Virus record (IMG/VR): IMGVR_UViG_3300017987_005501
Reading direction: 5' to 3' (one strand)
Source: a virus
Lineage: Duplodnaviria; Caudoviricetes
Length of the DNA stretch: 64,000 nt
Shown here: positions 14,468-64,000 of the stretch, piece by piece
How the letters are laid out: every line of letters starts with the position of its first letter
How positions within the stretch are numbered: the stretch's first letter is position 1
Program-made: the position numbers and the translations under genes
Notes under the pieces: generated by a model
Seen by the model: only the letters and a program-made list of their open reading frames with translations
Database searches by the model: none
Told to the model about the DNA's origin: nothing

Positions 14468-15355
14468 CTATTTTAGAAAAAGGATATCGTAAATTTCATT
14501 TCCATGAGAAGACATATCTATTTCATAGTTTAGAACTGAATCTGCCAAGTTTTTATTTTTCTGAAAGATTTTAATCTTACAAGACCCAGCTTCGCGGAAA
14601 TCTGAAAAAGAAACTTTATTTCCTGAGGAATAGGATATTGTTCTAACTTTTGAAGTCCCCACAATCATGGTATTTTTATTAATGGCCAAACCCCGAACAT
14701 ACCCACCACCCAGATCAAAAACTTCTCCAGACAAACTCCTAATACAAGATTTGGCAGACTCACAAAAATAAATTGTTCCATTTTCCGCTAGAAGAGTATG
14801 GGGTTGATATAACTTCGAATAATATATTTTATGTTCTGATACGCCCTTAATACAGCCATTCATTGAAAAAATCCAATTATCTTTTTTCGGGCCAAAAGCA
14901 GAATAATAAAGATTTCCTCCATATGAAAGAATGGAATTTAGGTGGATTAAATCTTTTGTTGAATCCTCTGCTACAAAGTAATCTGTTTCAACCAAAGTAT
15001 GGATATTAAATTTAATTATTCGATTGGTCCCCGTGGAAGCAATTAAAATATGGTTACGGTCTAAAACTTTTAAATCATGCCCACCTTTGACCTTTTTTAG
15101 TCCTATAAGTTGTTTAACCCTAAAGTTTTTATCAAGCCGGGCTAAAAACGAATCATATTTTTGGACTAAAACGAAGTAATCCCCCTGTATCTTCGTAATT
15201 CCGGTTAACCCAACCATATTTAAGGCAATAAATTCGGGAATAAAAATTTCGTCTACTTGTTTTGTTGCAAGATTTACTTTATATAAAAAGGTATGGGGGG
15301 AAGCAAATTGAAAATTTTCTTTTCTTTTATTTGGAATTGTTACAAGGATTTTCAT
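14468..15355 (-). CDS. Beta-propeller protein, DUF4915/TIGR03032-like
   Basis: HLNSI, L.QPH, LYFCES-like and GYVRGLA motifs. Confidence 0.55.
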   Translation of the reverse strand: MKILVTIPNKRKENFQFASPHTFLYKVNLATKQVDEIFIPEFIALNMVGLTGITKIQGDYFVLVQKYDSFLARLDKNFRVKQLIGLKKVKGGHDLKVLDRNHILIASTGTNRIIKFNIHTLVETDYFVAEDSTKDLIHLNSILSYGGNLYYSAFGPKKDNWIFSMNGCIKGVSEHKIYYSKLYQPHTLLAENGTIYFCESAKSCIRSLSGEVFDLGGGYVRGLAINKNTMIVGTSKVRTISYSSGNKVSFSDFREAGSCKIKIFQKNKNLADSVLNYEIDMSSHGNEIYDILFLK

Positions 15356-15945
15356 AGTAAGTCAGATTCTTCCATTCTCGCTGTGAGTTTCTTTATTGTC
15401 TTCCAGGACATTCTTACATAGGAAGGAAAATTAGGATAAAGTTTTTCCAAAAATTTCATAGTATGAACGTCTCCAGGATAACCTGAACATCTAATACCAT
15501 GATTTATTAAAGCATTATCTCTAGAAACTTTTGCTAAGATAGAAGCAGCCATACATGTTAAGTAATTAGAATCTGCTTTGTGTTCCGCAATAATCTCTGT
15601 ACCTGGAACTTCTATCATCTTTTTGTACTTGTGAGGAACAGGATGGGGGCAATCTACAAAAACCTTATCTGGGGAGAATTTTTTAATTAAGTTTTTAGAA
15701 TAATTTGCTTCCAGTTGAAGTAAATTACCCGAATCAATTTCTTGGGGAGAAATTTCTTTAATTTCATAAAAATCAAGAATCTCTACTAGTTTATCGAAAA
15801 GTTTTTGTCTTTTTGGTTTAGGAATTTTTTTAGAATCGTTTAAGCCTAATTCTTTTAGTTTTTCTTCGGAAGTTACTCCGGCAATAGCAATGTGTAACGA
15901 CCCTAATACGCAACCTTTTCCAGCTTCATCAATGCCAGCTAACAT
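15352..15945 (-). CDS. rnhB: Ribonuclease HII (archaeal-like)
   Basis: GIDEAGKG, DSKK, EHKAD, AASILAKVSRD, SGYP.D and VR.SW.T. Confidence 0.92.
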   Translation of the reverse strand: MLAGIDEAGKGCVLGSLHIAIAGVTSEEKLKELGLNDSKKIPKPKRQKLFDKLVEILDFYEIKEISPQEIDSGNLLQLEANYSKNLIKKFSPDKVFVDCPHPVPHKYKKMIEVPGTEIIAEHKADSNYLTCMAASILAKVSRDNALINHGIRCSGYPGDVHTMKFLEKLYPNFPSYVRMSWKTIKKLTARMEESDLL

Positions 15946-39044: not shown

Positions 39045-41687
39045 ATGGCAAAAAAGAAAAAAGAATTGGAATCAGCAACTAGCAAAGCGAAATCAAAGAT
39101 TGCAGGGAAGATTGATGAGGATTACGTAGATCTTTCAGGTAGTTTTCAAAGAAACTACGATGTAATCAATTCTGGGTCAGTTATTATTAATAAAGTAATC
39201 GGATGCGGAGGCATTCCTAGAGGGAGAATTACTGAAATATTCGGCCCGCCTAGCAGTGGAAAGTGTTTGGTAGGGGATTCTCTTCTTTTTACCCCACAGC
39301 AAGGAATTATAAAAATAGAGAAATTATATCATTCTCTAAAGGATAAACCGGGTCCGGATTCAGCAGTGGAATACCAGGAAAAGATTCTTGGAAAGGATGG
39401 TATTAAAACTACCTCACATTTTTATAATGGAGGCGTTAAAAAAACCAAAAAAATTAAATCTAGATATGGTTACGAGGTTGAAGGGACCCGGGTACATCCT
39501 ATTCTTGTAATGGAAAAATCTGGAAAACAGGTTTGGAGAAAATTAAAGGATGTAAAAAAAGGGGACTATATTTGTATTCAGAGAAATCAGCAATGTTTTG
39601 GAAAAGAATATATAAAATTAGATTGGGAATATAAAAAAGAATCCAGATGGGAAACTAGCACCAAGAAATATAAAATTCCTACTTCTATTGATGAGAAGTT
39701 AGCTTCTTTCTTAGCTTATGTTATAGCAGAAGGAACAACAACATATAAAACTTCTATGGGAATTTCACAAAAAGAAACTGAAGTTGCAAATATTATTAAA
39801 AAATTAGCAAAAAGTCTTTTTGGAAAAGAATTGGTTCTAAAAAAAGAATCTCTTAAGGATTATAATTTTAGTTCGAAACAAATTAGGTCCTTTTTATATG
39901 AAGCGTTAGGGGTTAATTATGTTAAATCGAATAAAAAGGAAATTCCAGATCTTATTCTTCAATCCCCCAAATCTGTTCAACAAGCGTTTCTTCGTTCTTA
40001 TTTCGAAGCAGAGGGATCAGTAACAAGCGACTGGGTTGAAATTTCTTCAGCGAGTAAGTGGTTGGTTCACCAATTACAGGTAATGCTTCTTAACCTAGGA
40101 ATTATTGCTAACCAACGAATTATTCATAATTCCGCGACAAACAGTTCAAACCCTGTTGAAAGAGACTACTATAGTCTTTGTTTAACGGGAAATAATATTA
40201 ACATCTTTGCTAAAGAAATTGGTTTTGAATCCACACGGAAGACACAAAAACTCGATTCCTTAGTAAAACAACGTAATTCTTTAATGGAAAGATCTAATGT
40301 CGAATCTATTCCATACCAAAAAGAGTTAGTCCTTGCTTTTAAGGATGAAGTGATTAGCGAGCAAGGGACAGGCCGAGGGGGGAATTTCCCTCGAAAGGGC
40401 TTTAAAAATGTATATGGAAATAATCTCGTTAAAAGATTAGAGGCTATTAAATACCGGGGGGATAATCTATCTTATCTGACCTGGAAAAGAATAAAAGAAC
40501 AAGCTCCAAAGGAACATCAGGAATTAAATTCTTTTTCTAAGATTGAGCGAAATATTGAAAACCAATTCTTTTATGATCTAGTAACAGAAATTACAGAATC
40601 GGAAGCTCAAGTTTATGATTTAACTATTCCAGATGGGCATAATTTTACATCAAATGGAATTATTTCGCATAATACGACACTGGCTACCTCTATCTGTATC
40701 CAAGCACAAAGAGAAGGCCATTCTTGTTTATATCTGGATTACGAACATGCTTTTGATCCTAGTTATGGAAAAGCAATTGGGCTAGACTTAGATCCCAATA
40801 AATTTGCACTGTATCAACCCAACTTTTTAGAAAAAGGTCAAGAACTAATTACAAGAGCACTAGCAACCCATACTCTAGTGAAGTCTACAGGGGCTAAAAA
40901 ACAAATCCCAGATAATGAAAGAGGAATTTGGATTGATCAAAAGAAGGGTATTGGCATTGGGGTCCCAGTAGTTATTATAATTGACTCTGTTGCAGCCTTG
41001 ATTCCAAAGAAGGAATACGAAGGCGAACATGATACAATGGAAATCGGGCTCTTACCTAGATTATTGTCAAGGTATCTAAGAAAGCTCGTAAGCCTTATTA
41101 AAGCTTCCAATTGTGCGATTGTTTTAGTTAATCAAGAAAGAACTAACATTAAAATGGGTCCTTTTGCTGCCGCAGGACCTGATTATGAAACTACTGGCGG
41201 TAAGGCAGTTAAATTTTATGCTAGTGTAAGGCTAAGATTAAAGTTGAAGAAAAAGGAAAAAGCTCGCGTCTTTAATGAGATTCAAGGAACAAAGGAAGAA
41301 CTTCCTATCCAGAATGTTATTAAATGTACAGCTGTTAAAAATAAGGTGGGAATGCCCTATAGAACTGGGGATTTCGTAATCCGCTTTGGGGAAGGGGTTG
41401 ATAATGTCCGTAGCATTGTTGACATTGCTATCAATGCTGGAATTATTAATAAAGGTGGGGCCTGGTTTGATTATAAATCTCTAGTAGATGAGGCCCACAA
41501 TTTTAGGGTTCAGGGAATGGAGAAAGTTCGAGATATCGTAATTGAAAAAGATTACCTTATTGACGAATTACAAGAAAGGCTAGAATCCTATTTTAATCAG
41601 GGCGATAAGAAGGAAACAGCCTCGGACCTAGAAAAAATGGAAGACATTGAATTAATTAGCGAAGAATATGGGGACGATGACGATTAA
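39045..41687 (+). CDS. recA: RecA with intein
   Basis: GGIPRGRITEIFGP.SSGK|TTLA, D.EHA.DP.Y, DSVAAL.PK.E.EG, NQER, TTGGKA.KFYASVRL, KNKV. Confidence 0.95.
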   Translation: MAKKKKELESATSKAKSKIAGKIDEDYVDLSGSFQRNYDVINSGSVIINKVIGCGGIPRGRITEIFGPPSSGKCLVGDSLLFTPQQGIIKIEKLYHSLKDKPGPDSAVEYQEKILGKDGIKTTSHFYNGGVKKTKKIKSRYGYEVEGTRVHPILVMEKSGKQVWRKLKDVKKGDYICIQRNQQCFGKEYIKLDWEYKKESRWETSTKKYKIPTSIDEKLASFLAYVIAEGTTTYKTSMGISQKETEVANIIKKLAKSLFGKELVLKKESLKDYNFSSKQIRSFLYEALGVNYVKSNKKEIPDLILQSPKSVQQAFLRSYFEAEGSVTSDWVEISSASKWLVHQLQVMLLNLGIIANQRIIHNSATNSSNPVERDYYSLCLTGNNINIFAKEIGFESTRKTQKLDSLVKQRNSLMERSNVESIPYQKELVLAFKDEVISEQGTGRGGNFPRKGFKNVYGNNLVKRLEAIKYRGDNLSYLTWKRIKEQAPKEHQELNSFSKIERNIENQFFYDLVTEITESEAQVYDLTIPDGHNFTSNGIISHNTTLATSICIQAQREGHSCLYLDYEHAFDPSYGKAIGLDLDPNKFALYQPNFLEKGQELITRALATHTLVKSTGAKKQIPDNERGIWIDQKKGIGIGVPVVIIIDSVAALIPKKEYEGEHDTMEIGLLPRLLSRYLRKLVSLIKASNCAIVLVNQERTNIKMGPFAAAGPDYETTGGKAVKFYASVRLRLKLKKKEKARVFNEIQGTKEELPIQNVIKCTAVKNKVGMPYRTGDFVIRFGEGVDNVRSIVDIAINAGIINKGGAWFDYKSLVDEAHNFRVQGMEKVRDIVIEKDYLIDELQERLESYFNQGDKKETASDLEKMEDIELISEEYGDDDD
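39264..40673 (+). mobile_element. LAGLIDADG intein (470 aa) in the RecA Walker A (GK|T)
   Basis: Starts CLVGDS, block B GTRVHP, LAYVIAEG and FEAEGSV, ends ISHN with +1 Thr. Confidence 0.93.
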
Positions 41688-47179: not shown

Positions 47180-48415
47180 ATGGCAAAATTTAAGATTAAA
47201 AAAGAAGCATTATTAGATAACTTAAATCTAGCTTCTCTTGCGATAAATCGAAGGGAAGAAGATATTACAAGTAACTTTGTTTTTAAGGTTGAGGATGAAA
47301 AACTTGTAATTTTAGCAACTGATAATACTTCAATTGCAAAAGTAAAGGTTGGAAAAATTAGTCTAGAGGGCGATGATAATGAATCCTTTTCTTTTACCTT
47401 AAAAGCTCAAAAAGTTTTAGGGTTGTTAGGGACCTTAAAAAAGGATAACGAAGTCGAGTTTAATTTTAATAAGGCAGATATGAATGTCGTTATTAATGAA
47501 ACTTATGATTTTCCTTCTCTTGATCCAGACGATTTCCCAGAATTTAATAGTGAAATTGAAAAGGCAGAGTCTATTTCGGAAATAAAAATTGATGCATTGA
47601 GTAATGCCCTAAAATATATTAATGGGTTTATTGGGAATGACCCTCAAGGCCGTCCAGAATTAACTATTGGTTTAATTAAGGATAATACTTTCTTGGCGAG
47701 TAATGGAAAAACCTTTGGGGTATATGAATCTAAGGACCTTAAAGCAGATGGGTTTGAAGTAAGCTACAACGTTATTGGAAATATCCAGAAGTTTACTAAG
47801 GGTTTTGAAACCCCTATTGTTGTTGAGCCTAAAGATAAAAATAAGGACGACGACTCTAAGGACGACGACTCTAAGGACGACGACTCTAAGGACGACGACG
47901 GAGCGGTTGTCCCCTCTAAAAAGATAAAGCTACTGAAAAGTTCTAACTTTTTCATTATTGCTTCCCCCGACGAGTTAAACTACTATGGGTTTAGAAAGTG
48001 CGACTATAAATTCCCAGCTCAAAAGCTTCAAACGCAAATTGAGAAGGGAAAGGACGCAGAAACAAAATGCAAAATTTCTCGAGTTGAACTTTCGGAAGTC
48101 ATTAACCGTTTATCTTTCTGTATCGATGAAACAAGCAATAGGATGTCTTTTGTATTAACTGGGGATTCAGACGAGGCAGAGTTAGAAATCTCTGTTATTG
48201 GTTCCCATAAAAGGACAACTACAGAAAAAATGAAGGTCTCAAGACTTTCAGGCGAAGAGGATATTACTTTTAGCCTAAACTTTAACCACTTAACTAAAGT
48301 TTTACCCCTTTATGACAGCCCTGAAATAATCCTATCAGAAAATAAAGCTATTATGTTATCAGACGAACTTGACGACCACAATCTTTATGGGATGATTGCA
48401 GTTTTAAGGAGTTAA
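47180..48415 (+). CDS. dnaN: DNA polymerase III beta-type sliding clamp
   Basis: Three-domain length; L.I.ATD; FP; L...L.R; I.FN...L pattern of DnaN. Confidence 0.75.
   Translation: MAKFKIKKEALLDNLNLASLAINRREEDITSNFVFKVEDEKLVILATDNTSIAKVKVGKISLEGDDNESFSFTLKAQKVLGLLGTLKKDNEVEFNFNKADMNVVINETYDFPSLDPDDFPEFNSEIEKAESISEIKIDALSNALKYINGFIGNDPQGRPELTIGLIKDNTFLASNGKTFGVYESKDLKADGFEVSYNVIGNIQKFTKGFETPIVVEPKDKNKDDDSKDDDSKDDDSKDDDGAVVPSKKIKLLKSSNFFIIASPDELNYYGFRKCDYKFPAQKLQTQIEKGKDAETKCKISRVELSEVINRLSFCIDETSNRMSFVLTGDSDEAELEISVIGSHKRTTTEKMKVSRLSGEEDITFSLNFNHLTKVLPLYDSPEIILSENKAIMLSDELDDHNLYGMIAVLRS
47842..47899 (+). repeat. In-frame 15-bp tandem repeat (about 3.9 copies) encoding KDDDS
   Basis: (taaggacgacgactc)x3 plus taaggacgacgac, DNA-perfect. 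Confidence 0.95.
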
Positions 48416-50836: not shown

Positions 50837-51157
50837 ATGTACGGATACTACGCAACAAAAAAACCAATTAAAGAAGTAGTCCGGGAATTAGAGAAAGACT
50901 TTAAAGGCCAATATCAAATAACGGCTACGCAGGTCTATGACTGGACAATTAAACACTACCCTTATAATGCATATCTTTTAGCCCCCGAAATAATTGGTTA
51001 CTTTTGGAGGTATGTTAAAAATCATAATATCAATGTTTTAGCTTCCACCAAATCTTCCAGGATTAAGAGTAGTATAATTAATAGACTAAATAAAATTAGT
51101 AAAGTTCTGGAAAGATTAAATGAGCACGCAAGAGAAAATAAAATCATTCATCGATAA
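50837..51157 (+). CDS. Hypothetical protein
   Basis: 106 aa. Confidence 0.65.
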   Translation: MYGYYATKKPIKEVVRELEKDFKGQYQITATQVYDWTIKHYPYNAYLLAPEIIGYFWRYVKNHNINVLASTKSSRIKSSIINRLNKISKVLERLNEHARENKIIHR

Positions 51158-51824
51158 AGCCCACCGCAAGCTTCTTAGATCCCAAGAAGCATTATCCTAC
51201 TTAGAAAAGCGTGGAGTTACTAAAGAGCAAATTGAGAGATATAAATTTGGTTTCTCTTTAACCAAAAAAATGGGTATCCCCGAATTTGATAAATGGTCTT
51301 TTAATGGGGATCGGTTAAAAAATCGCCTAATTTTCCCAATTAAAAATTCTCTAGGGGATTATAAAGCTTTTGGAACAAGGCTTAATAATAAAGATTCTGG
51401 GGGATACCAGTATTTTTATTTTGATAAGATAGAAGCAACCTTCTTTGGGATGGAAAACTTAAAATCTATTTGGGAAAAAGGGTACTGTTATATAACAGAA
51501 GGTATTTTTGATCACCTAGTTTTAGAACATTTATACGATAACTGTATTTGCCCTCTTACCGCAAACTTGAAACAAGGCAGACTTAAGTTTTTAAGTAGGT
51601 TTGCGGATACAATTATTTTTGCGTTTGATGCTGACAGTACCGGTATTGAGAAAATTAAGCAAATTTCTCAAAACGAGGACTTGAACCATTTAACCTTTTA
51701 TCAATTTTCAAACTACAGAAGTGTCGGGGAAAATGTTAAAGACTTAAATAACATATGGCAGGTACTCGGGGAGAGTAAATTTAAGGATTTTATCGAAAGA
51801 CAAAATGATTTATTTGTTTTTTAG
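51120..51824 (+). CDS. dnaG: DnaG-type primase catalytic core (no zinc-binding domain)
   Basis: YLEKRG, RL.FPI, AFGTR, ITEG.FD, FAFDAD..G, KDLN. Confidence 0.85.
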   Translation: MSTQEKIKSFIDKAHRKLLRSQEALSYLEKRGVTKEQIERYKFGFSLTKKMGIPEFDKWSFNGDRLKNRLIFPIKNSLGDYKAFGTRLNNKDSGGYQYFYFDKIEATFFGMENLKSIWEKGYCYITEGIFDHLVLEHLYDNCICPLTANLKQGRLKFLSRFADTIIFAFDADSTGIEKIKQISQNEDLNHLTFYQFSNYRSVGENVKDLNNIWQVLGESKFKDFIERQNDLFVF

Positions 51825-53488: not shown

Positions 53489-54019
53489 ATGAAAGATTTA
53501 TCCAAAGCTAAATGGACCGATAGCGATAAGCGGAATTGGAAAGAAACTATCAAAAGTTTTTATAATATAGAACACGTAACTTCAATTCAAAAATATAATC
53601 CATCAGATACAATTTTCCTCACCCGTTGTTCCTCTGCCAAATCCGGAAAAGTCCGTGGGACCCCTTCCCAAATGTATTGGGGGGCTATTAATAAAAAGTT
53701 CTACCGTATGCTGGATAAGTTTGAGTTATACTACGGGGTATGTAGCGACTTTCTAGGGGTTGTTTTTAAGGACGAAGAATTTGATAACTATGATGTTCAT
53801 CCCGCCGATATTACAGACGAGGACAAGAGAAAACTTGGAGAAATAATTAGTACTAAAATAAAGGAAAAGGGCTTTAAAAATGCCTATTTCTTTAATACTA
53901 GCCCTCTTTTATCGAGGCCCTATTTTGAGATGCTATATTATTCACAAATTCCTGTAAAATATTTCTCGGATTTACAAATTGTTAGGGAAGCATTTGAAGT
54001 TGAAGATGATTTACTCTAG
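53489..54019 (+). CDS. DUF6884-like protein
   Basis: FLTRCSSAK...P..MY.G...V.S...G....D.YD matches my recollection of the DUF6884 pattern; needs HMM confirmation. Confidence 0.5.
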   Translation: MKDLSKAKWTDSDKRNWKETIKSFYNIEHVTSIQKYNPSDTIFLTRCSSAKSGKVRGTPSQMYWGAINKKFYRMLDKFELYYGVCSDFLGVVFKDEEFDNYDVHPADITDEDKRKLGEIISTKIKEKGFKNAYFFNTSPLLSRPYFEMLYYSQIPVKYFSDLQIVREAFEVEDDLL

Positions 54020-54028
54020 GAGGTAGTT

Positions 54029-55507
54029 ATGTGTTCCATTTTTGGATTTTTTAAACCGTCCGGTGCTATTGGGGACTCATTCGAAGAAAATGGCTTCAAA
54101 ATCCCCTGGAAAAGCTTATTCCATAAAATCACAGAAAATTCTAGCGAGAGAGGCAAGGATGCCTTCGGTTATGTCAAATTTGGAAGAGGCGCACCCATTG
54201 TAAATAAGTGGTCGTTGAAAAATTATTCAACACATCAAAAAGAAAATGCATACTACGGGTGGGGTGTTGACGAAGACTCGTGGGGACTTTTAGCAAATAA
54301 TAGGGCAGAACCAGAAACAGAATTCCAAAAAGATTTTCAGGAAAAGGATTTTCAACCTTTTACCAGCCCTACCCTTAGTGGAAATACTGTCCATGTTGTG
54401 CATAATGGGTTGGTAAGTAACGATGCAGAAATCCGGGAAAGATTAAAATTAAACCTTGACACGGAAACTGATTCAGCAGTTCTTCCCTATGTTTTTCGCC
54501 AAGCTACCTATTTTCAGGGATTTTTAAGGGATATTAAATACAAACTAAAAGGTAGCTATGCCCTTGCCGTATATAATACCCTAAGCCCAGACAAGCTCTT
54601 TCTCTATAGAGATTTCAACCCGTTAACTGTTCTATATAATAAACAAGAAAATGTATATATCTTTGCTTCCTTTGAAAAATACGTAAGAGAAGCTATTTCT
54701 AAATGCAAGGGAAACCAACTTAATTGGGCAACCATAGATATCCCTCCCTATTCTGGAGCTGTAATTTCTAAAAAAGGAATTGAAATAGCATCTATCGACT
54801 CCGTTGACGATTCTCAAAAGAAAGAACCGGTCCAAGAACTTTTCTTTGGAAAAAAGGCATTAATCGTAATGAGTGGGGGCCTTGATAGCGTTGTTGCTGC
54901 TATTATGATGAAAAATATGGGGTTTAAATTAGATTTCTTACATTTCTCCTACGAAGGGAGAGCACAGGAAAAAGAAATCTCTGCTGTTAAAGACCTAGCA
55001 GAACATTTTAATGCTAATCTTGAAATTTTCAAATTCGACCTATTTAAAAATTTAGGAGGAAGCAGCTTAGTTGACAGAAATATTGACTTAGCTGATGGGA
55101 AAGAGGGGGCGGAACATGCTAAAGATTGGATTCCCGCCCGAAATACTGTCTTTACCGCTATTGCCGCTGCATACGCAGATAGGTTTAAGTACGATGCCAT
55201 TGTCTTAGGATTAAATTTATCAGAGGGGATGACCTTCCCGGACAATACAACGGAATATTTTGAAACTTTCTCTAGGGTTCTCAGTCTCGGGACAATGCAA
55301 AGACCTAAAATTATTTGTCCCTTAAGTAATATGACTAAACATGAGTTAGTATTATACGGTATGAGAGAAGACCCAGATGCTATAAAACTTAGCTATAGTT
55401 GCTATACAGGAAACGATAAACACTGTGGCACATGTGCAAGCTGCTACCTTAGAAAAATTGCTTTCAAGATGAACAACTTAAACGATCCGGCTGATTTTGA
55501 GGATTAA
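54029..55507 (+). CDS. gat-queC: Glutamine amidotransferase class II-QueC fusion (Gat-QueC)
   Basis: N-terminal MCSIFG, NRAEP, VHNG, TDS; QueC part SGGLDS, PARN, SCY...HCGTCASC. Confidence 0.92.
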   Translation: MCSIFGFFKPSGAIGDSFEENGFKIPWKSLFHKITENSSERGKDAFGYVKFGRGAPIVNKWSLKNYSTHQKENAYYGWGVDEDSWGLLANNRAEPETEFQKDFQEKDFQPFTSPTLSGNTVHVVHNGLVSNDAEIRERLKLNLDTETDSAVLPYVFRQATYFQGFLRDIKYKLKGSYALAVYNTLSPDKLFLYRDFNPLTVLYNKQENVYIFASFEKYVREAISKCKGNQLNWATIDIPPYSGAVISKKGIEIASIDSVDDSQKKEPVQELFFGKKALIVMSGGLDSVVAAIMMKNMGFKLDFLHFSYEGRAQEKEISAVKDLAEHFNANLEIFKFDLFKNLGGSSLVDRNIDLADGKEGAEHAKDWIPARNTVFTAIAAAYADRFKYDAIVLGLNLSEGMTFPDNTTEYFETFSRVLSLGTMQRPKIICPLSNMTKHELVLYGMREDPDAIKLSYSCYTGNDKHCGTCASCYLRKIAFKMNNLNDPADFED

Positions 55508-55510
55508 ATT

Positions 55511-56731
55511 ATGACAGAGAAGAAACCAGAAAAGAAACAAAAACAACACGGAGTTGCCGAAGATATGAATACTCCACCGGAGCTAAGCGACACGAAGAAG
55601 CATACTCTTTATAAAACTTTGGAAGTCGCAAGAGAAAAAGTCACAACGGAAATTAAAGATAAATGTGAAGGGAAGAAGAAGTTCGTTATTTGGATTGCAC
55701 AAATCGACCCCGATGCCATTGGGTCCGCTATGGTTATTAGGTACTACCTAATGGTTTGCTTAAATATCGACCCTAGTTATATCCAAATTTATTATGGTGG
55801 GGCCGTTTCCCACGCACAAAACCGGTGCATCTTTAATATTTTCGAGTTAGATAATTTATTCCAGCGAATATCTTGCGAAGAAGTGCCTCATAAGGAAGAG
55901 GAGGAAATTTGGTTTTTAGTAGATTCTAACGACCTTAATGATTCCAGGTTTTCTGGCATGGACTTATCAGATATTGATATTATTATTGATCATCATAGGA
56001 TATCTGCTAAACAAAAAACCGAGGATAAAATTTATTTTATCGATTCAATTGGGTCTGCTTCAACTTTAACAGTTGAACTCTTGGAAACAGAATGTTCTGG
56101 TTTAGAAAATTTACCTTCTGATTCCGACCGAGAGAAAGTTTTAACCCTAGCATCAATTGGAATTCGAAATGACACAAACAACTTTACGTCAGCATTAACC
56201 CATACGAGGGACACAGAAGCACTTAATAAATTAATTCCTTTTATTGATAATGATTTAACAATCCAAGTTGAAAATTACCCCCTGGATAATAACTATTTCT
56301 CTATACTATCTAATGTCCTTGAAACAAGAAAAGTTAAAGGAATTAGAGCAATCGCCTCCGCTGGCTATATTTACGAGGAGGATGGGGACCAATTAGCAGA
56401 AGCTTGTAATCTGTTAATTCGGGAAGCCCGCGTTAGCATTGCTGTTGTTTGGGGGATTATTTTAGAAACGGGAAGGGTGCGACTTAGTATTCGAAGCAAA
56501 GATGTTTCTCTAAACCTTGATTCAAAATTAAAAGAGGTTTTCGAAGGAAAAGGAGGCGCAAAACAAACTAAGGGGGTTGCAGAAGGTGGAGTACATTTAG
56601 ATATGGGAGATTTCGTACCTTCTGGGCCACTTAAGGATGATGAGACGTATAAGGAATATTGGAGAAACATTATAGAGGCAAATATTACAGGTAAAATTTC
56701 ACTTATGTTAAAAGACAGTGGAGAAGATTAA
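55511..56731 (+). CDS. DHH/DHHA1 family phosphoesterase
   Basis: DPDAIGS, LVDS, IDHH, GSAST, GI.NDT, SIRS, GKGGA. Confidence 0.85.
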   Translation: MTEKKPEKKQKQHGVAEDMNTPPELSDTKKHTLYKTLEVAREKVTTEIKDKCEGKKKFVIWIAQIDPDAIGSAMVIRYYLMVCLNIDPSYIQIYYGGAVSHAQNRCIFNIFELDNLFQRISCEEVPHKEEEEIWFLVDSNDLNDSRFSGMDLSDIDIIIDHHRISAKQKTEDKIYFIDSIGSASTLTVELLETECSGLENLPSDSDREKVLTLASIGIRNDTNNFTSALTHTRDTEALNKLIPFIDNDLTIQVENYPLDNNYFSILSNVLETRKVKGIRAIASAGYIYEEDGDQLAEACNLLIREARVSIAVVWGIILETGRVRLSIRSKDVSLNLDSKLKEVFEGKGGAKQTKGVAEGGVHLDMGDFVPSGPLKDDETYKEYWRNIIEANITGKISLMLKDSGED

Positions 56732-57584
56732 AATGAATTTAAGATACTATGGTTTCCAGCCCGAAATTAAAGAATACGTTGATAATACGCTCCGCCCAGG
56801 GGTGTATAAGACAGAACTTCCCTATATAATTTCATTTATTGGGGAAGCTAACGTTTCAAAAGATGGTCTTTGTGACTTAGCCGACATCCATGGAAGCGAG
56901 GCTTTTATTGAAGGAAATATGCTTCATTTTATCGCAGAGTTCCCAGATAATATTTCGCCTCACGAAATGGTTTTATATCAAAGAAGATTTATTACTATTG
57001 TAAAACAAAAAATTGAGGGCTTAGGAGATATTAAACTAACACAAGGTGGGGACGATTTATATTATAAAGGAAGGAAACTAAGCGTATCAATTGTTGCTCC
57101 TTCGACTGTCGGCACCTATCTTATGCACGCAGCATTTAATATCACAAACAAGTGTAAGCTTAACATCTCTTGGCTGGACGAATTCATAGATACGGATTAT
57201 GAATCATTAGTTAACCTATCCTTGGATTTAATGGGACAATTTAAGAATGAACTAGATTCGATAAATTATGCTGTACATAAGGTTAAACCCATTTATCCAG
57301 ATGGGCATTTCCTTAACCTAGAAAAAGCAATTGAAAACGCAAGTTTTAGAGTTTCTAATTTACAAAAGATCATCAGAGACTTATATAAGGAAGTTACCTC
57401 AACCTTGCCTTACGAAGAAAAGAAAGATAAAGCCTTGGAGCTTATTAGTCTTTTTCCCCTAAATAAAACAGAGGAATTAAAAGAAGCTTTGTCCTGTTGT
57501 AATGATGATCGCCATTTAGTCGCTTTTGCAGAAGCACTAATTATTAAGCTGCTAAGAGAATCAAAAATCGTCTCTAACTATTAA
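56718..57584 (+). CDS. DUF366 family protein (class II aaRS/lipoate-ligase-like fold) with C-terminal extension
   Basis: LRP, I.SF.G...V, DL.D, MLHFI.E, YQR, GDDLY..GRKLSVSI, H...N. Confidence 0.75.
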   Translation: MEKIKMNLRYYGFQPEIKEYVDNTLRPGVYKTELPYIISFIGEANVSKDGLCDLADIHGSEAFIEGNMLHFIAEFPDNISPHEMVLYQRRFITIVKQKIEGLGDIKLTQGGDDLYYKGRKLSVSIVAPSTVGTYLMHAAFNITNKCKLNISWLDEFIDTDYESLVNLSLDLMGQFKNELDSINYAVHKVKPIYPDGHFLNLEKAIENASFRVSNLQKIIRDLYKEVTSTLPYEEKKDKALELISLFPLNKTEELKEALSCCNDDRHLVAFAEALIIKLLRESKIVSNY

Positions 57585-57598
57585 GAAGGGTAATTTAT

Positions 57599-59155
57599 AT
57601 GAGTCATTTCTTTAATATTAAGAAGAAAGATATTGGGTACAGCCGGTTTGGAGAAATTGAATGTGTACACGAAAATGTAATTACCCCTTGTTATATTCCC
57701 GTTGTACCTTTTTTAGACTCTTCGGACGATTCAATCAGGACTGAAAATATAACAAAAAGTTTTCCCAAGAAGCCGGGTTTATCCCAGGTTTTGTTGCATA
57801 ATAAAGATGGGAAGCTAAGTAAAAGCCAAAAAGAAAAGTTATCGACAAAAATTCATGAAACTCACCCACAATATGAGGGTGCTTTGTTTCTGGATAGTGG
57901 AGGGTTTAAGTTAATTAGAATGGATATTGAAGATATGCCTTTTAAGGAAGTTTTTGATATCCAGAAAGATGTTGGAGGCGACATCTTCTTCACTTTGGAT
58001 TATCCTATTATTAAGGATATGCCTTTTCCAATGCAGATTAAAAGGGCTAATAAAAGCCTGGATAACGCCATTAAAGCACTTCAATACCGTAAAGACCTTT
58101 GGGGGACTGCAACTGATAAACCTATTGTTTATGTTGCAGTGCATGGCACTTCTACGCAGTTTGTTAGGGACTATTTGGAGGAATTCTTCCGCCTCCTTAA
58201 AAAACACGATCTAGAAGATGTTCCATTTGGTTTCGCTCATGGGTCCTTGGTCCCCTTAAAGCATCGAAGGTATCTAGTATTGGATTTCCTTTACGAGACC
58301 AAAATGGTGTTGAAAGAAAAAGACATGTTAGACAAGGTCCCAATCCACGCATTTGGGATCTCGGGATCTTTAATTCCTCACCTTGGGCTATTAGGAATTG
58401 ATACCTTTGATAGTGCCTCTTATTTACTTTCGGCCGGGAACCACCAAATCTTTGATCCTGAAACATTAGAGACAATTAGTTTTATGGAAAAAGAAGATTC
58501 CGTCGAAAAAGGAAAGTATTGTAAGAGAAGAGGGATCGACCCCACGAAGTTTAAGAATCTAAAAGAAGCGTGGGGCTGTGATTGTATGTGGTGCGAGAAA
58601 GTAAAAAATGCATATCCTCCTGCGAAGGAAAATCTTGTTGATTTCGCACGAATTATCCAAAGAGTTGTGCCTCAAGAAGGGGGTTGGAGAGAGGATAAGG
58701 ATTTCTTACAATATCTAAAAGACCGAAATTTCGCATTTATGGACTATTTATATGTTCATATGATTTGTCACAACCTGACAGTCACTAATAATCTTGTTTC
58801 TAAAATGCATGAACATCTTAGGGCTGGGACATATGAAGGATTTTTCTTTGACTTCCTTAATAAAGTCCACCAAGGGAATTCTAAAAAACAAGTTAAGCAG
58901 ATAAGATTCCTCAATTCTATTTTGAAGGACCAACCAAAATTTTATGATCTAGCAGCAAAACACGTTCCCCAAATTAAAGGTAGGGAGCTACTAGAAACTA
59001 ACTCATCTCCTAAGAGACCAAAACTCGTGGACTTTAAAATGGACACTTCTGGAATCGGTTTGCACCCAGGGAAACATAAAAAAGCGGAGAAGAAAATTGC
59101 AGCAGAGAGAAGAATGAAAAAGGAGCAAACCTATTTTGAAGATGACCTTCTTTAA
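57599..59155 (+). CDS. dpdA: TGT-family guanine transglycosylase (DpdA-like)
   Basis: TP.Y.P, LFLDSGGF, TLDYP, VHG, HAFG, DTFDS, zinc site CDCMWC...HNL; no PUA domain. Confidence 0.85.
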   Translation: MSHFFNIKKKDIGYSRFGEIECVHENVITPCYIPVVPFLDSSDDSIRTENITKSFPKKPGLSQVLLHNKDGKLSKSQKEKLSTKIHETHPQYEGALFLDSGGFKLIRMDIEDMPFKEVFDIQKDVGGDIFFTLDYPIIKDMPFPMQIKRANKSLDNAIKALQYRKDLWGTATDKPIVYVAVHGTSTQFVRDYLEEFFRLLKKHDLEDVPFGFAHGSLVPLKHRRYLVLDFLYETKMVLKEKDMLDKVPIHAFGISGSLIPHLGLLGIDTFDSASYLLSAGNHQIFDPETLETISFMEKEDSVEKGKYCKRRGIDPTKFKNLKEAWGCDCMWCEKVKNAYPPAKENLVDFARIIQRVVPQEGGWREDKDFLQYLKDRNFAFMDYLYVHMICHNLTVTNNLVSKMHEHLRAGTYEGFFFDFLNKVHQGNSKKQVKQIRFLNSILKDQPKFYDLAAKHVPQIKGRELLETNSSPKRPKLVDFKMDTSGIGLHPGKHKKAEKKIAAERRMKKEQTYFEDDLL

Positions 59156-59188: not shown

Positions 59189-60145
59189 ATGGGCTATTTC
59201 TCTGTAATAAAAAGAAAAAGATTTATGTCTACCCTAGAATTAAATACAGAACAATTTGATTTAAGAGTTCTTGAAAAACTTTTCGAAGAGGAGCCTTACC
59301 CTAATAGTGTGATCCTCGTAGGAAAAAAAGGGGTAGGAAAAAAAACTCTTGCAAAAAAGATTTGTTATCAGGTAAACAAGGAGAACCCTAAAGTCTTAAA
59401 AGGGAATTTTCCAGATTTACATTGTTATGGCCCTACCTTTAGCGGGAAAAATGTTTTCCAAAAAGCAGAGATCGAGGAAATTATTGAAAAAAGCTATATA
59501 AGGCCCATAGAAGGCCCTTATAAAGTATTTATAATGGACCAAATAACCACTTTTTCTTGGGGAGCGGGAGAAGCCTTTCTTAAAGTATTAGAGGAGCCCC
59601 CACCGAAAAATTTATATATTATGACAGCTGATTCATTATCCGGGATAATCCCTACGATTAAATCCCGTGCGATTAATATTAAGATTAAGGACTTACCTTC
59701 TCAGGAAATTATTCCAATTCTTAAAAATAGATACCCTGATAGCGATAAATTAGAAATTATTTCGAAATTATCAAATGGAAGTATTGGAACGGCGATTGAT
59801 ATTGTTAACCATAATTTATTAAGAATTCGGAATAAATTAAACGAACTATTGAAATCCCCAAATATTCTGCCTTATGATCTTATCAATACAACTCAGTGGT
59901 CTGAATTTCCAGAGGATTGGGAACAAAAAGATAAGGTTAAATTAATCCTACATTTCTTAAAAACATTTTGCGTAGACTCGCACAGGCCCTTTATTAATTC
60001 TGATTTAGAAGACATAAATATTCCTAACGTGGGAAAAATTATTAATCTAATATATCTGTTTGAGACAAAATTTCATCACGAGTATAATTTTCAAGTTCAT
60101 TTATTATCCTTTTGGATGGATCTGCATTATTTATTAAAATTATGA
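59189..60145 (+). CDS. holB: Clamp loader delta' subunit-like
   Basis: G..G.GKKT, FPDL, LKVLEEPP, PTIKSR; start may be 59225. Confidence 0.85.
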   Translation: MGYFSVIKRKRFMSTLELNTEQFDLRVLEKLFEEEPYPNSVILVGKKGVGKKTLAKKICYQVNKENPKVLKGNFPDLHCYGPTFSGKNVFQKAEIEEIIEKSYIRPIEGPYKVFIMDQITTFSWGAGEAFLKVLEEPPPKNLYIMTADSLSGIIPTIKSRAINIKIKDLPSQEIIPILKNRYPDSDKLEIISKLSNGSIGTAIDIVNHNLLRIRNKLNELLKSPNILPYDLINTTQWSEFPEDWEQKDKVKLILHFLKTFCVDSHRPFINSDLEDINIPNVGKIINLIYLFETKFHHEYNFQVHLLSFWMDLHYLLKL

Positions 60146-61171: not shown

Positions 61172-64000
61172 ATGCAGACATCGACAGCAGTAATCCAGGA
61201 TTCCATATTCAGTACCCAAATGGCTTATGAAAATTGGATAAGCAAATACCGGTATAAACAAGAAAACCCAATCGATACTTTTAGAAGAGTTGCAAAAGAG
61301 TTAGCAAAAATAGAAGCTCCAGATAAAAGAGAATATTGGGAAGATAAATTTTTCCATGCAATGGTTAAAGTGGAAAACGGAATAGCAGTCGGGCTAAAAT
61401 GTACTCCTGGCGGAAGAATCACATCAAACGCAGGAGCGAAAGATAAAAATAAGGGAGGAAAAGCAACCCTTTTTAATTGTTTTATTAATGGCCCCGTAAC
61501 AAACGCAAATATTAATTATTCAAAGGATATCCAGAACGAAAAGGTAGCATTTAAACTTAAGACCTCCGATTCCCCGGATGACCTTAATAATATTTTTCTA
61601 ACTATCCTAGAGCAAGCAAAAACACTTGCATCCGAAGGTGGTTATGGAATTAATTTTGATTTTATTCGTCCTCGAGGTTCTGTTATTAAGGGAACGAAAA
61701 TTAAGCATCCTGGAGTCTTATCCTATATGAATGTTTGGGATACGGTTGCAGCGATGATTATCAAGGGGGATAACGATGGCTATGCTGATACCCTCAAAAA
61801 TTATTTAACGGAAGAAGAACAAGAACGCTGGGAAGCGGAATTTGAAAACTTAAAGAGGGCACCTCGCAAAGGTGCTATGATGGGATGTTTAACCGTATCA
61901 CACCCTGATATCGAAGAGTTTGTGCGTGCCAAACAAACTCCAGGAGTTTTGACAAAGTTTAACATCTCAGTTGTTGTAACAGATGAGTTTATGACAGCAG
62001 TTGCAGAAGACAACCTTTTCGAATTAAAATTTAATGGTAAAGTTTATAAAAGAATCAAAGCTCGCGACCTTTTTGACCTCATTATGAAAAGTACCTATAA
62101 CCGGGCAGAACCAGGGATTCTTTTCTACGATAATATGCAGAGAAATAACCCGATTAGTTACCTAGGAAAGGTTAATGCAACGAACCCGTGTTTTACTGGG
62201 GAAATGCGTCTTCATACCAACAAAGGGCTTATAACATTTAAGCAGCTGCATGAGAATGGGAAGAAAAATATCGTTGTCGTAGACGAAAGAGTTTATGACG
62301 AAGGTAAAATCGATACTGAAAATTTAGGAACTTCCTTAAAAAGGGCATCGGAAGTTGTACTAACGGAGAAAAAAGCTAAAATTTTAAGGATTACAACTTT
62401 GGATGGCCGAGAACTTAGAGTTACCCCCTACCATAGATTCCCTACCCTTACGGGATTTAAGGAAGCTAAAGACCTATCAATCAACGATCCTATTTATTTG
62501 CAATCGGAGGAGGGGCGATGGGGGAAAAAAGGATCCTTTGAGTATGGGATTTTAGTGGGGCTACTTACTGGGGATGGCACTTTCTCCCAAGACATTGATT
62601 ATAGAACTGAAAGTAATTATTCCTCGGACCGTGCAATTATTTCCTTATGGAACGAGGATACGGACACTATTAATCGGGTTCGGGGTTTCCTTAAAGTTCT
62701 GTTTAATAAGGAGTTGAAAGGAAATCTTAAAAAGAATGCTTCTATTAATGGGTATTCAAGATTTAATTTCTCCTCAAATCTTCTTTACTCAAAAATTAAA
62801 TTAGACCTGGATGAAGAAAATCCAAGACTTATTAAAGCTCGGGTTCCAGATTTCGTTTTCAAGGGAAGTCGCGAGATGATCGTGGGATACCTCCAAGGTT
62901 TATTTTATGCAGATGGTAGTGTGAATTTTAGCGATAAAAAAAGAGATTTAACACTTCGGCTTGCTCAAAGCAATAAAAAGCTTTTACAAGATGTCCAAAA
63001 TTTACTTTCTAGTTTTGGCATTAACGCAAAGCTACGAAAAGCCCGAGACGAAAACGAAACAATGCTTCCTGATGGAAGAGGGGGTTATAAGGCATATTCC
63101 TGTAAAGCTAATTATGAGCTTATTCTAAATAGGTTTAACACCATAAGGTTTAAGGAAAGAATTGGCTTATTCGGAAAAGCAAAAAATAAGAAATTAGATA
63201 ATGCTTTACAAACATTCCAAAAAAACCCATATAAAGAAAAATTTGAAACGAAAATTATTTCAATCGAAGAAGATGGGGAAGAGGACGTTTATTGCCTAAA
63301 CCAACCAGAAAACGAGTCCATTATTGTAAATGGAGTTTTAACTGGAAATTGCGGAGAGATTCCGGGAAATCCAACTATCTCAACAACTTGTTTATTAGGG
63401 AACTTAAACCTAACTGCCTATGTGAGAAAAGATAGAACATTCGATTATGAGTCTTTTAAGGAAGACGTAAAAACATTTGCTAGGTTATTGGATAATGTAA
63501 ATGATATTTCTTTTTTGCCTCTTTCAAGATATGAAAATGCTGTTAAGTCATTAAGGCAATATGGAATGGGTCTAAATGGTCTTGGTTCTGCCTTAATCAT
63601 GATGGGAATCCCCTATAATTCCCCGGAAGGAATTGCTTTTGCCGAAGAATTGGCATATCTTAAAGAAAATATTACGATGCAAACCAGTGCCTTACTCGCA
63701 AAAGAAAAAGGCGCTTTTCCTTATTATTGTGAGGATTTTCTAGATACGGATTATTTTAAGTCTGATAGGCTAACAAGCGAAACAAAGGCTTTAGTTAAAA
63801 AGTATGGAGTTAGAAACGCAAAAACAACAACGAACCCACCCAATGGAAATACTTCCATTATCTGTGATATTGTCTCAAACGGAATTGAACCTGTGTTCAT
63901 GCTTGAATACGAGCGATTTAGAATGGCGGACGACTGGCCAGAAGGATTAAATCTCGATAATGTTAAAACTTTACTGGATGAAATCAAGATTGGAGATGCT
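61172..64000 (+). CDS. nrdJ: Class II (B12-dependent) ribonucleotide reductase with intein (partial; runs off window end)
   Basis: Not in ORF track. Manual translation from ATG 61172: PGGRI..NAG, TL.NC, GG.G..FD.IRP.G, RKGAMM, HPDIEEF, FNISV, AEPG, NATNP|CGE, CLLG, GLNG, PPNGNTS...NGIEP. Confidence 0.9.
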   Translation, partial: MQTSTAVIQDSIFSTQMAYENWISKYRYKQENPIDTFRRVAKELAKIEAPDKREYWEDKFFHAMVKVENGIAVGLKCTPGGRITSNAGAKDKNKGGKATLFNCFINGPVTNANINYSKDIQNEKVAFKLKTSDSPDDLNNIFLTILEQAKTLASEGGYGINFDFIRPRGSVIKGTKIKHPGVLSYMNVWDTVAAMIIKGDNDGYADTLKNYLTEEEQERWEAEFENLKRAPRKGAMMGCLTVSHPDIEEFVRAKQTPGVLTKFNISVVVTDEFMTAVAEDNLFELKFNGKVYKRIKARDLFDLIMKSTYNRAEPGILFYDNMQRNNPISYLGKVNATNPCFTGEMRLHTNKGLITFKQLHENGKKNIVVVDERVYDEGKIDTENLGTSLKRASEVVLTEKKAKILRITTLDGRELRVTPYHRFPTLTGFKEAKDLSINDPIYLQSEEGRWGKKGSFEYGILVGLLTGDGTFSQDIDYRTESNYSSDRAIISLWNEDTDTINRVRGFLKVLFNKELKGNLKKNASINGYSRFNFSSNLLYSKIKLDLDEENPRLIKARVPDFVFKGSREMIVGYLQGLFYADGSVNFSDKKRDLTLRLAQSNKKLLQDVQNLLSSFGINAKLRKARDENETMLPDGRGGYKAYSCKANYELILNRFNTIRFKERIGLFGKAKNKKLDNALQTFQKNPYKEKFETKIISIEEDGEEDVYCLNQPENESIIVNGVLTGNCGEIPGNPTISTTCLLGNLNLTAYVRKDRTFDYESFKEDVKTFARLLDNVNDISFLPLSRYENAVKSLRQYGMGLNGLGSALIMMGIPYNSPEGIAFAEELAYLKENITMQTSALLAKEKGAFPYYCEDFLDTDYFKSDRLTSETKALVKKYGVRNAKTTTNPPNGNTSIICDIVSNGIEPVFMLEYERFRMADDWPEGLNLDNVKTLLDEIKIGDA
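62189..63349 (+). mobile_element. LAGLIDADG intein (387 aa) at the RNR active site (NP|CGE)
   Basis: Starts CFTGEM, block B VTPYH, GLLTGDG and GLFYADG, ends LTGN with +1 Cys. Confidence 0.9.

Follow-up and report, generated by a model that had tools for sequence, protein, structure and literature searches.

The 64,000-nucleotide (nt) stretch of viral DNA analysed here (IMG/VR record IMGVR_UViG_3300017987_005501; Duplodnaviria, Caudoviricetes; the whole stretch is termed the window) harbours five genes at positions 53,489 to 59,155 that we read as a 7-deazaguanine DNA-modification module, comprising a core of four genes and one variable slot and acting through the steps proposed below; we put the probability of this reading at about 0.6. 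The module is built on a Gat-QueC protein and a TGT-family transglycosylase, and with the former being a full-length homologue of phage enzymes and the latter having intact catalytic and zinc sites, the kind of system proposed by the first-pass annotation, a description made from these letters alone, is upheld. The five genes are as follows.

53489..54019, plus strand: DUF6884-like protein P0216, 176 amino acids (aa), with a Pfam DUF6884 match below the cut-off
54029..55507, plus strand: Gat-QueC, 492 aa, with Pfam QueC and GATase_6/7 matches
55511..56731, plus strand: DHH-family phosphoesterase, 406 aa, with a Pfam DHH match
56733..57584 (alternative start 56718), plus strand: DUF366 protein, 283 aa, with a Pfam DUF366 match
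57599..59155, plus strand: TGT-family transglycosylase, 518 aa, with a Pfam TGT match

All five are encoded on the same strand and are separated by gaps of 9, 3, 1 and 14 nt, in keeping with the tight, co-oriented packing already remarked upon in the first-pass annotation. For the DUF366 gene, the most likely start is the ATG at 56733, which has a GGAG ahead of it and is the start used in gene calls on public contigs. The placement of the module between primase and clamp loader, claimed in the same annotation, holds on one side only: a clamp loader gene follows directly, at 59189, but three further genes, including one for a NucS-like nuclease, separate the primase (51120-51824) from the module. 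The module lies within the replication gene block of the window, which also encodes RecA, ribonucleotide reductase, a DnaN-type clamp, primase, clamp-loader subunits, RuvC, thymidylate kinase and RNase HII. The same TGT protein is found on contigs of up to 283 kb, and an identical module was read on contigs of several samples; the module belongs to a jumbo phage of more than 240 kb. No DNA-level match to the 5.7-kb region was found in GenBank phages.

Two sister phages, L001 and L002, share the gene order NYN, primase, small genes, nuclease, DUF6884-like, Gat-QueC, a variable slot, DUF366 and TGT, with the clamp loader following TGT in L001 and the contig of L002 stopping before that point. 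Identities between the window proteins and their sister orthologues are 49-54 % for the DUF6884-like protein, 47-50 % for Gat-QueC, 38-55 % for DUF366 and 61-62 % for TGT. The slot between Gat-QueC and DUF366 is occupied by the DHH gene in the window, by a DUF4031 gene and a methyltransferase-like gene in L001, and by a gene for an unknown protein of 163 aa in L002. The conserved core is thus formed by four genes (DUF6884-like, Gat-QueC, DUF366 and TGT), with one slot being variable. Beyond the core, GT4-like and GT2 glycosyltransferase genes and a gene for an S1-domain protein lie 3′ of TGT in both sisters (L001:12956-18466 and L002:8993-12154), none of which is found at the equivalent position of the window. 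In L001 the S1-domain gene is followed by a second TGT paralogue (424 aa, 32 % identical), and the L002 contig ends shortly after its S1 gene.

The Gat-QueC protein is a regular phage synthase of the archaeosine/preQ0 family. It consists of a class-II (N-terminal nucleophile, Ntn) glutamine amidotransferase, with Cys2 as catalytic residue, fused to a QueC PP-loop ATPase that carries a C-terminal zinc-binding Cys cluster. Its N-terminus reads MCSIFG, which places the catalytic Cys right behind the initiator Met and, along with the GATase_6/7 matches, identifies the glutaminase; the PP-loop motif SGGLDS and the C...C-x2-C-x2-C cluster, both present, identify the QueC half. Profile scores agree with this assignment (Pfam QueC, 3e-53; NCBIfam TIGR00364, 150.7 bits versus a cut-off of 150.3; PHROG 10428, full length, 8e-78), and the protein aligns along 100 % of its length, at approximately 31 % identity, with phage proteins annotated as Gat-QueC, among them the Nonagvirus FritzHoffmann 'dPreQ0 and archaeosine synthase'. 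QueC proteins encoded beside DUF366, as well as phage Gat-QueCs including that of Nonagvirus, display an F/Y-PDN motif where canonical QueC has Y-PDC (alignment of sequences from the window, L003, L004, L089 and L123). In phage 9g, the Gat-QueC protein and DpdA suffice for the production of dG+ in Escherichia coli DNA, and a strain deleted for queC also supports this, whereas one deleted for queD does not (PMC6884629). Because these two proteins sufficed in E. coli, a module without folE, queD and queE could work on CDG (7-carboxy-7-deazaguanine) made by the host.

The transglycosylase matches Pfam TGT (PF01702) at 3e-17, with 63 bits versus a cut-off of 26.3. Its Asp motifs (LDSGGF, TLDYP and GIDTFDSASY) and zinc site (CDCMWC...H) align with those of the archaeal ArcTGT structure 1IQ8, so that the earlier statement that all three motifs and the zinc site are kept is borne out. 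Residues D99, D134, D268/D271, C327, C329, C332 and H391 are invariant or nearly so, which places the protein in the TGT superfamily; the counterparts of its Asp motifs in Pyrococcus horikoshii ArcTGT are presumably D95, D130 and D249. An AlphaFold 2 (AF2) model with a predicted local distance difference test (pLDDT) score of 87.9 has 1IQ8 as its top PDB match (E 4e-18), and ArcTGT is the best match by sequence as well as by fold. The NCBIfam model for TgtA (TIGR00432) nevertheless gives 66.7 bits versus a cut-off of 350, leaving the protein outside the ArcTGT family proper. Residues 330-518 match no Pfam family, with neither a PUA nor a TGT_C2 domain, and in the AF2 model the C-terminus forms a helical bundle, behind which comes a disordered tail, rich in Lys at first and then acidic. 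No tblastn match was obtained in 50,697 GenBank phage records and no match in PHROG; the PADLOC DpdA models did not match either, in a search in which a bacterial DpdA scored 6e-130.

Amongst cellular proteins, the nearest relatives of the phage TGT are bacterial fusions of 600-660 aa that combine TGT with DUF5591, the ArcS core, at approximately 30 % identity. In one such case, Allocoleopsis franciscana (L111:8001-11621), the TGT+DUF5591 gene stands between a DUF7662-HTH gene ahead of it and GmrSD_N/DUF262 and HEPN genes behind it, an arrangement reminiscent of a deazaguanine system in defence-island form. We take DUF262 to be ParB-like. DpdB, the partner of DpdA, belongs to the ParB-like superfamily (PMC10164549). 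On these grounds the phage enzyme is read as a new transglycosylase clade of the ArcTGT/ArcS lineage, with DNA as its putative substrate.

With regard to the DUF6884-like protein P0216, the first-pass annotation had listed it as a mere extra, a view that does not stand given its ArcS-core/DpdC-like character and the fusion of its family to TGT or DpdA elsewhere. P0216 itself matches Pfam DUF6884 (PF21818) at E 3.8e-4 and 21.1 bits, under the 30-bit cut-off, whilst its relatives (E 1e-36 to 1e-19) exceed that cut-off with 31.9-38.3 bits. Comparison with DUF6884 clusters gives an Atlas feature score of 0.90 and structural template-modelling (TM) scores of 0.6-0.84. The family contains 105 representative clusters, mostly stand-alone proteins of approximately 165 aa. 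P0216 harbours a Cys-x3-Lys motif (C47-S-S-A-K51), with the second motif reading CSDFLG. DUF6884 has been described as a YaaA-like DNA-binding and base-flipping fold that has a CxxxK and an LSAxxG motif and is predicted to hold the flipped base in a pocket (PMC11701544).

Alignment of the P0216 family profile with the DUF5591 ArcS core by hhalign gives a probability of 81.5 % (E 1.1e-5, 109 columns), with C-S-x-x-K falling on PCSxxKPY, LSDxYG on LSGLYG and YD on YD. The full ArcS signature, PC-x3-KPY-x2-S-x2-H, is absent from P0216, of which only the C-S-x-x-K part is present, and the comparison indicates homology to the ArcS core (PF17884) at the superfamily level, not membership. Fusions tell a similar story. 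In the protein P0233, a TGT domain (DSGG, CPCPIC) is naturally fused to a P0216-like domain (E 4e-23) at the C-terminus, and in the dpd island of Desulfosporosinus fructosivorans (L103/L104, G001:C34:112000-146000) a 681-aa DUF6884-DpdA fusion adjoins folE2-queC-queD-queE. The DUF6884 half of this fusion matches DpdC models at 2e-8; pairwise BLAST between it and P0216 is not significant. Some 15 kb from the fusion gene, the same island contains a second TGT-like gene, for a protein of 306 aa, and several DEAD/ResIII helicases. In effect, the phage holds as two genes what its bacterial TGT+DUF5591 relatives hold fused. ArcS and ArcS2 (PMC10516641), as well as DpdC (PMC10164549), all act on the nitrile of nucleic-acid-bound preQ0, and by analogy with these enzymes the most likely task of P0216 would be to modify the nitrile of the inserted preQ0 base, giving dG+ or dADG.

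A further feature connects P0216 to the transglycosylase, as both end in a short acidic peptide that is also seen in the phage RNase HII.

53996..54016, plus strand: C-terminal tail ...EVEDDLL of the DUF6884-like protein
59132..59152, plus strand: C-terminal tail ...YFEDDLL of TGT, a candidate replisome/clamp docking peptide
15352-15945, minus strand: RNase HII (Pfam, 8e-34), with the tail ...MEESDLL

These three are the only proteins ending in [DE][DES]DLL amongst the 321 stop-to-stop open reading frames of at least 50 aa in the window. Related tails occur in the sister phages, in TGT (...EEIDLF and ...EELDLL) and in the DUF6884-like protein (...EIDLFE and ...EEEDLI), and the primases of the window and its sisters end in QN[DNI]LF[VI]F (QNDLFVF in the window). 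Both the DLL tails and the primase end resemble what we take to be bacterial clamp-binding motifs. When the TGT tail was modelled with the phage beta clamp (47180-48415) in two copies, the score was 0.37 versus 0.00 for the best control, a level reached by just five of 78 solved complexes and by all four of the mismatches that passed; separate runs agree in at least 64 % of contacts, and the partner has a pLDDT of approximately 49-51. Docking of the tail to the clamp thus receives weak support from the predicted complex. As a sequence feature, the shared tail is the best internal hint available, and suggests that TGT and the DUF6884-like protein may work at the replication fork.

The DUF366 protein belongs to its Pfam family (PF04017) by score (7e-29, 101 bits versus a cut-off of 29.9), by its invariant residues and by its 2DDZ fold. 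Its AF2 model (pLDDT 91.3) has PH0223 (2DDZ) as top PDB match, with a TM score of 0.81-0.83 by target and an E-value of 5e-12, followed by biotin/lipoate protein ligases and octanoyltransferases (BPL, LplA and LipB, at E 1e-6 to 1e-7), in agreement with the ligase-type fold that the first-pass annotation had ascribed to it. The top Swiss-Prot match of the model is the uncharacterised MJ0805 of Methanocaldococcus jannaschii. The core of the protein spans residues ~1-190, and is followed at ~195-280 by a helical C-terminal domain of five helices and approximately 95 aa, which is specific to the phage clade and absent from cellular DUF366. The stretch GDDLY...K-L-S-V-S-I and a His, an Asn, a Glu and a Lys are invariant and common to phage and cellular DUF366, which are otherwise approximately 25-35 % identical. 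The strand in question resembles what we take to be the lysine strand of BirA, 'NDLY..RKLAGIL'. A glycine-rich ATP loop was not identified in DUF366, the match to the adenylate-forming superfamily being one of fold. As for TGT, no tblastn match was found in the 50,697 GenBank phage records, and a literature search for PF04017, COG2029, PH0223 and MJ0805 returned no functional study.

The genomic surroundings of DUF366 are more informative. The gene is carried by 516 GTDB species genomes, and in all 80 Bacillota loci from which neighbourhoods were taken it lies inside a que operon: 66 have the arrangement queD-queC-DUF366-queE-folE, six have queD-DUF366-queE-folE, three have DUF366-queE-folE and five display other subsets, some of which are cut at contig ends. 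DUF366 adjoins que genes also in L004, in a Chloroflexia genome, in a metagenome-assembled genome of Actinomycetota and in another lineage. For viruses, an alignment-based scan of IMG/VR yielded nine DUF366 loci, where a scan with a single protein gave none; in eight of these the gene is near que genes, and in four of the eight directly beside QueC or Gat-QueC. The association of DUF366 with que genes, which the first-pass annotation had put forward as a check, is therefore seen in bacteria and viruses alike. In five IMG/VR viruses with DUF366 no Pfam TGT/DpdA match was obtained, a result that is uninformative as DpdA3 and DpdA4 are very divergent and the DpdA model matched no control genome. 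On viral contigs of this kind (L113-L121; G207-G211), DUF366 adjoins QueC or Gat-QueC and has QueE/QueD nearby, with no Pfam-detectable TGT/DpdA, even in a 141-kb genome with terminal repeats.

From these surroundings, DUF366 is an unrecognised regular member of bacterial queuosine-precursor operons. Its portrayal as a phage-specific hypermodifier or add-on is probably wrong, as it is embedded in ordinary bacterial preQ0 operons whose hosts carry tgt (in all five DUF366-positive genomes checked, in canonical form) and queA (in 83 of 84 genomes of one Bacillota class, and in 38 of the 39 DUF366-positive genomes there). Because it sits in the preQ0 operons of tgt and queA carriers, a part in synthesis of the base is favoured over one in its later decoration, and DUF366 looks like a base-pathway, CDG-handling enzyme. 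As a committed guess, it would bind CDG and activate it in an ATP-dependent manner, since CDG is the carboxylic acid shared by QueE and QueC and the fold is one that activates carboxylates. AsnA provides a precedent for a relative of this fold that forms amides. Two simpler roles were rejected. That DUF366 replaces QueC is contradicted by the presence of QueC elsewhere in five genomes with a queC-less operon, and in 39 of 39 DUF366-positive genomes of the class. That it serves only the 'PDN' subtype of QueC is contradicted by Heliobacteria and some Desulfosporosinus, which pair DUF366 with a canonical 'PDC' QueC, and by the PDN-type Gat-QueC of Nonagvirus, which has no DUF366 in the locus read. 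The surroundings of distal QueC in DUF366-less genomes were uninformative.

The relationship of DUF366 to QueF was assessed by a census of 205 genomes (G001-G205; loci L098-L102) from two Bacillota classes. DUF366 is present in 122 of these and QueF in 18, and none has both (Fisher p = 2.5e-8, with relatedness uncorrected); in one of the classes QueF occurs in only two of 121 genomes. Most genomes have queC and queE despite the scarcity of QueF. Nine genomes, all Desulfosporosinus relatives with queD-queE-folE, queC and queA, possess neither DUF366 nor QueF, and because of these a different missing reductase must exist; a different preQ0 reductase or a salvage route is thus implied in QueF-less Bacillota.

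The remaining gene encodes a DHH-family member (PF01368; 1e-9, 39 bits versus a cut-off of 28.1), with DxD, DHH and GGxH-like motifs all present. Its second domain matches no Pfam family, but is DHHA1-like by its Atlas structure neighbours, which are DHH/DHHA1 phosphoesterases with TM scores of 0.7-0.8. Weak NCBIfam and PDB matches point to Mn-dependent/family II pyrophosphatases (DHHA2); identification as an inorganic pyrophosphatase was rejected in view of the weakness of these matches and the DHHA1-type neighbours, and is kept as a possibility only. No DHH gene is present in the module loci of L001 and L002, where the slot holds other genes, and the protein is accordingly a lineage-specific accessory rather than the integral part of the operon for which it had been taken. 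The idea that it removes pyrophosphate or AMP released by two ATP-using enzymes is attractive but unsupported.

The gene content, folds, motifs, conservation, synteny and fusions set out above can be accommodated by a four-step scheme, within which we infer the DNA substrate, the order of the steps, the chemistry of the DUF366 and DUF6884-like proteins and the final base. The QueC half of Gat-QueC would turn CDG, from the host or from phage que genes elsewhere, into preQ0, with the Cys2 glutaminase half supplying ammonia. DUF366 would handle CDG as part of base synthesis, either by ATP-dependent activation of its C7 carboxylate (an amide-forming, AsnA-like reaction) or by handing it over from QueE to QueC. 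The ArcTGT-like transglycosylase, held at the replisome by its acidic ...DLL tail, would then swap G in DNA for the deazaguanine base, whereupon the DUF6884/ArcS-core-like protein, bearing the same tail, may flip the inserted base and add to its nitrile via the Cys-x3-Lys motif, with an amidine (dG+) or an amide (dADG) as the outcome. The dG+ named as default product in the first-pass annotation is plausible by likeness to phage 9g (PMC6884629), but as the module contains a second candidate for nitrile modification, the end product could be dG+, dADG or a new base.

A number of points weigh against this reading. A search of the 64-kb window, of the 15 kb downstream and of the sister loci revealed none of the genes folE, queD and queE. 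By BLAST, PHROG and PADLOC, the TGT falls into none of the DpdA subfamilies (bDpdA, DpdA1-4), and its resemblance to ArcTGT, which acts on tRNA, exceeds that to every proven DpdA. The link between P0216 and the ArcS core is remote, deriving from the single profile comparison described, and P0216 itself has no match to DpdC models at E 0.01. Under the scheme, the Gat domain and the DUF6884-like protein are two redundant nitrile modifiers. In terms of DUF366, QueC alone is said to perform both steps from CDG to preQ0, in work of Nelp and Bandarian from 2015, such that activation of CDG would be a helping and not an essential step; in addition, DUF366 is lacking from the nine close Desulfosporosinus relatives, which do possess queD-queE-folE and queC.

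Alternative roles for DUF366 have also to be considered. It could be a tailoring ligase that adenylates the carboxyl group of CDG, free or in DNA, and joins it to an amine or amino acid, with the slot enzyme (DHH in the window) contributing, to give a new amide-linked hypermodified 7-deazaguanine. The ligase fold with its conserved Lys strand would suit such a reaction, as would the additional C-terminal domain of the phage clade, the constant position of DUF366 directly upstream of TGT in that clade, the methyltransferase-like gene in the slot of L001, the glycosyltransferases after TGT in both sisters, and the dCDG of unexplained origin in virus STSV-2 (PMC10516641). Set against this, cellular DUF366 resides in plain queD-queC-DUF366-queE-folE operons of tgt/queA carriers in which no extra amine-donor gene was seen, the catalytic-looking residues are identical in phage and cellular proteins, and DHH is not conserved, making this role unlikely. 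More improbable still is that DUF366 is a non-homologous replacement for QueF, converting preQ0 to preQ1, with the phage inserting preQ1 or a derivative (dPreQ1-type DNA). Whilst the mutual exclusion of DUF366 and QueF in the census would be explained, as would the near-universal queA and the tgt of DUF366-positive genomes, the nine relatives that have the pathway and queA have neither gene, and QueF is nearly absent from one class anyway. Moreover, the ligase fold of DUF366 has no obvious nicotinamide site and no invariant Cys, and the family is present in methanogens (control genomes), which do not make queuosine.

The other alternative concerns the substrate, with the module modifying tRNA instead of DNA and placing archaeosine-like bases in host or phage tRNAs so as to tune translation or shield tRNA from host nucleases. 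That the closest solved structure and best NCBIfam model of the TGT are ArcTGT/TgtA, that no DpdA model matches it, and that an S1 RNA-binding protein gene lies a few genes downstream in both sisters, followed in L001 by the second TGT paralogue, would all be in line with this. The PUA and C2 domains through which ArcTGT binds tRNA are, however, missing from the phage enzyme, its gene lies amid replication genes, its tail is common to RNase HII, and its conserved partner family has a DNA-binding fold that is fused to DpdA in the dpd island. The cyanobacterial relative stands beside a DUF262/GmrSD_N gene, of the ParB-like kind that DpdA has as partner, and no tRNA gene is present in the 64-kb window. 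In addition, queuosine in tRNA was not restored to an E. coli tgt deletion strain by the DpdA of phage 9g (PMC6884629), and a DpdA gene is present in every phage or virus whose DNA contains 7-deazaguanine (PMC10516641). DNA is the likelier target on the basis of the replication-block position, the shared tail, the partner family and the absence of PUA, and modification of tRNA is a distinctly improbable outcome.

Returning to the DNA-modification reading, a bolder extension of it would make DUF366 a missing 7-deazaguanine enzyme, with the C7 carboxylate of CDG as the group that it activates. In bacteria and archaea this could serve an unrecognised preQ0/queuosine step or bypass, possibly tied to the absence of QueF from whole Bacillota classes, and in the phage clade, where DUF366 has gained a C-terminal domain and would act alongside a DNA transglycosylase of ArcTGT descent and a base flipper resembling the ArcS core, it could lead to a base outside the eight described 7-deazaguanines. 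We regard this as tentative and rather doubtful.

Elsewhere in the window, inteins with a LAGLIDADG homing endonuclease domain occur in RecA (39045-41687) and in the large subunit of ribonucleotide reductase (61172-64000, open at the window end). A phosphoribosyl pyrophosphate synthetase gene lies approximately 9.6 kb past the window end (L122:13178-14137), amid unknown genes. Promoter and terminator scans gave results at chance level.

When compared with described systems, the module shares several features with the dG+ system of phage 9g and Nonagvirus (FolE, QueD, QueE, Gat-QueC and DpdA1). Its Gat-QueC aligns with theirs over the full length and has the same Cys2, PP-loop, PDN and zinc cluster, and a TGT-superfamily enzyme is likewise encoded next to replication genes, suggesting the same logic of base exchange in DNA. 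It differs in that its 518-aa TGT is ArcTGT-like, with no kinship to DpdA1-4 detectable by the searches above, in that no folE, queD or queE lies near the module, and in the inclusion of DUF366 and DUF6884-like genes, which are absent from the 13.4-kb que/dpdA stretch read in Nonagvirus FritzHoffmann. The bacterial Dpd system (DpdA, DpdB and DpdC; Salmonella Montevideo; PMC10164549) similarly pairs a transglycosylase with an enzyme for conversion of the preQ0 nitrile once the base is in DNA, and DpdC models are matched by the DUF6884 domain that the Desulfosporosinus island carries fused to a bona fide DpdA. In contrast to that system, no DpdB (ParB-like ATPase) and no restriction genes were seen in the phage module, and its TGT and P0216 do not match the DpdA/DpdC models.

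P0216 recalls ArcS and the phage ArcS2, encoded with DpdA2 in Vibrio phage nt-1 (PMC10516641), in being a small, stand-alone Cys-x3-Lys protein encoded with a putative DNA transglycosylase. Its family aligns with DUF5591 with CSxxK and LS-x-x-Y-G in register, and the closest cellular relatives of the TGT carry DUF5591 fused; yet P0216 lacks the complete ArcS signature, is nearer to DUF6884 according to Pfam, and is only a remote homologue (81.5 % probability). Archaeal ArcTGT (P. horikoshii, 1IQ8) provides the best sequence and structure match for the catalytic domain of the TGT, including the three Asp and the zinc site, but the phage enzyme has a helical bundle and a disordered charged tail in place of the C2/PUA domains. 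Phage DUF366 possesses the fold and invariant residues of PH0223 (2DDZ) and MJ0805, both uncharacterised, and differs from them by its extra helical domain of approximately 95 aa. The module, which most likely exchanges guanine in the phage DNA for a 7-deazaguanine base, combines a known synthase with three conserved partners that have no counterpart in any described phage system.

DNA modification with 7-deazaguanines is a main route by which phages escape restriction and CRISPR, and the catalogue of enzymes involved (DpdA1-4, Gat-QueC, ArcS2, QueF and DpdL/M/N) includes neither DUF366 nor a DUF6884-type partner nor an ArcTGT-like transglycosylase. In the two Bacillota classes, the presence of preQ0 genes (and of tgt and queA where checked) with almost no QueF points to a hole in the queuosine pathway. 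For DUF366, a family whose structure has been solved since 2007, the association with CDG/preQ0 genes in Bacillota, in three loci of other lineages and in viruses offers a first functional handle. The module described here supplies, in addition, a new putative clade of DNA transglycosylases and a candidate for the DNA-level nitrile-modifying step in phages.

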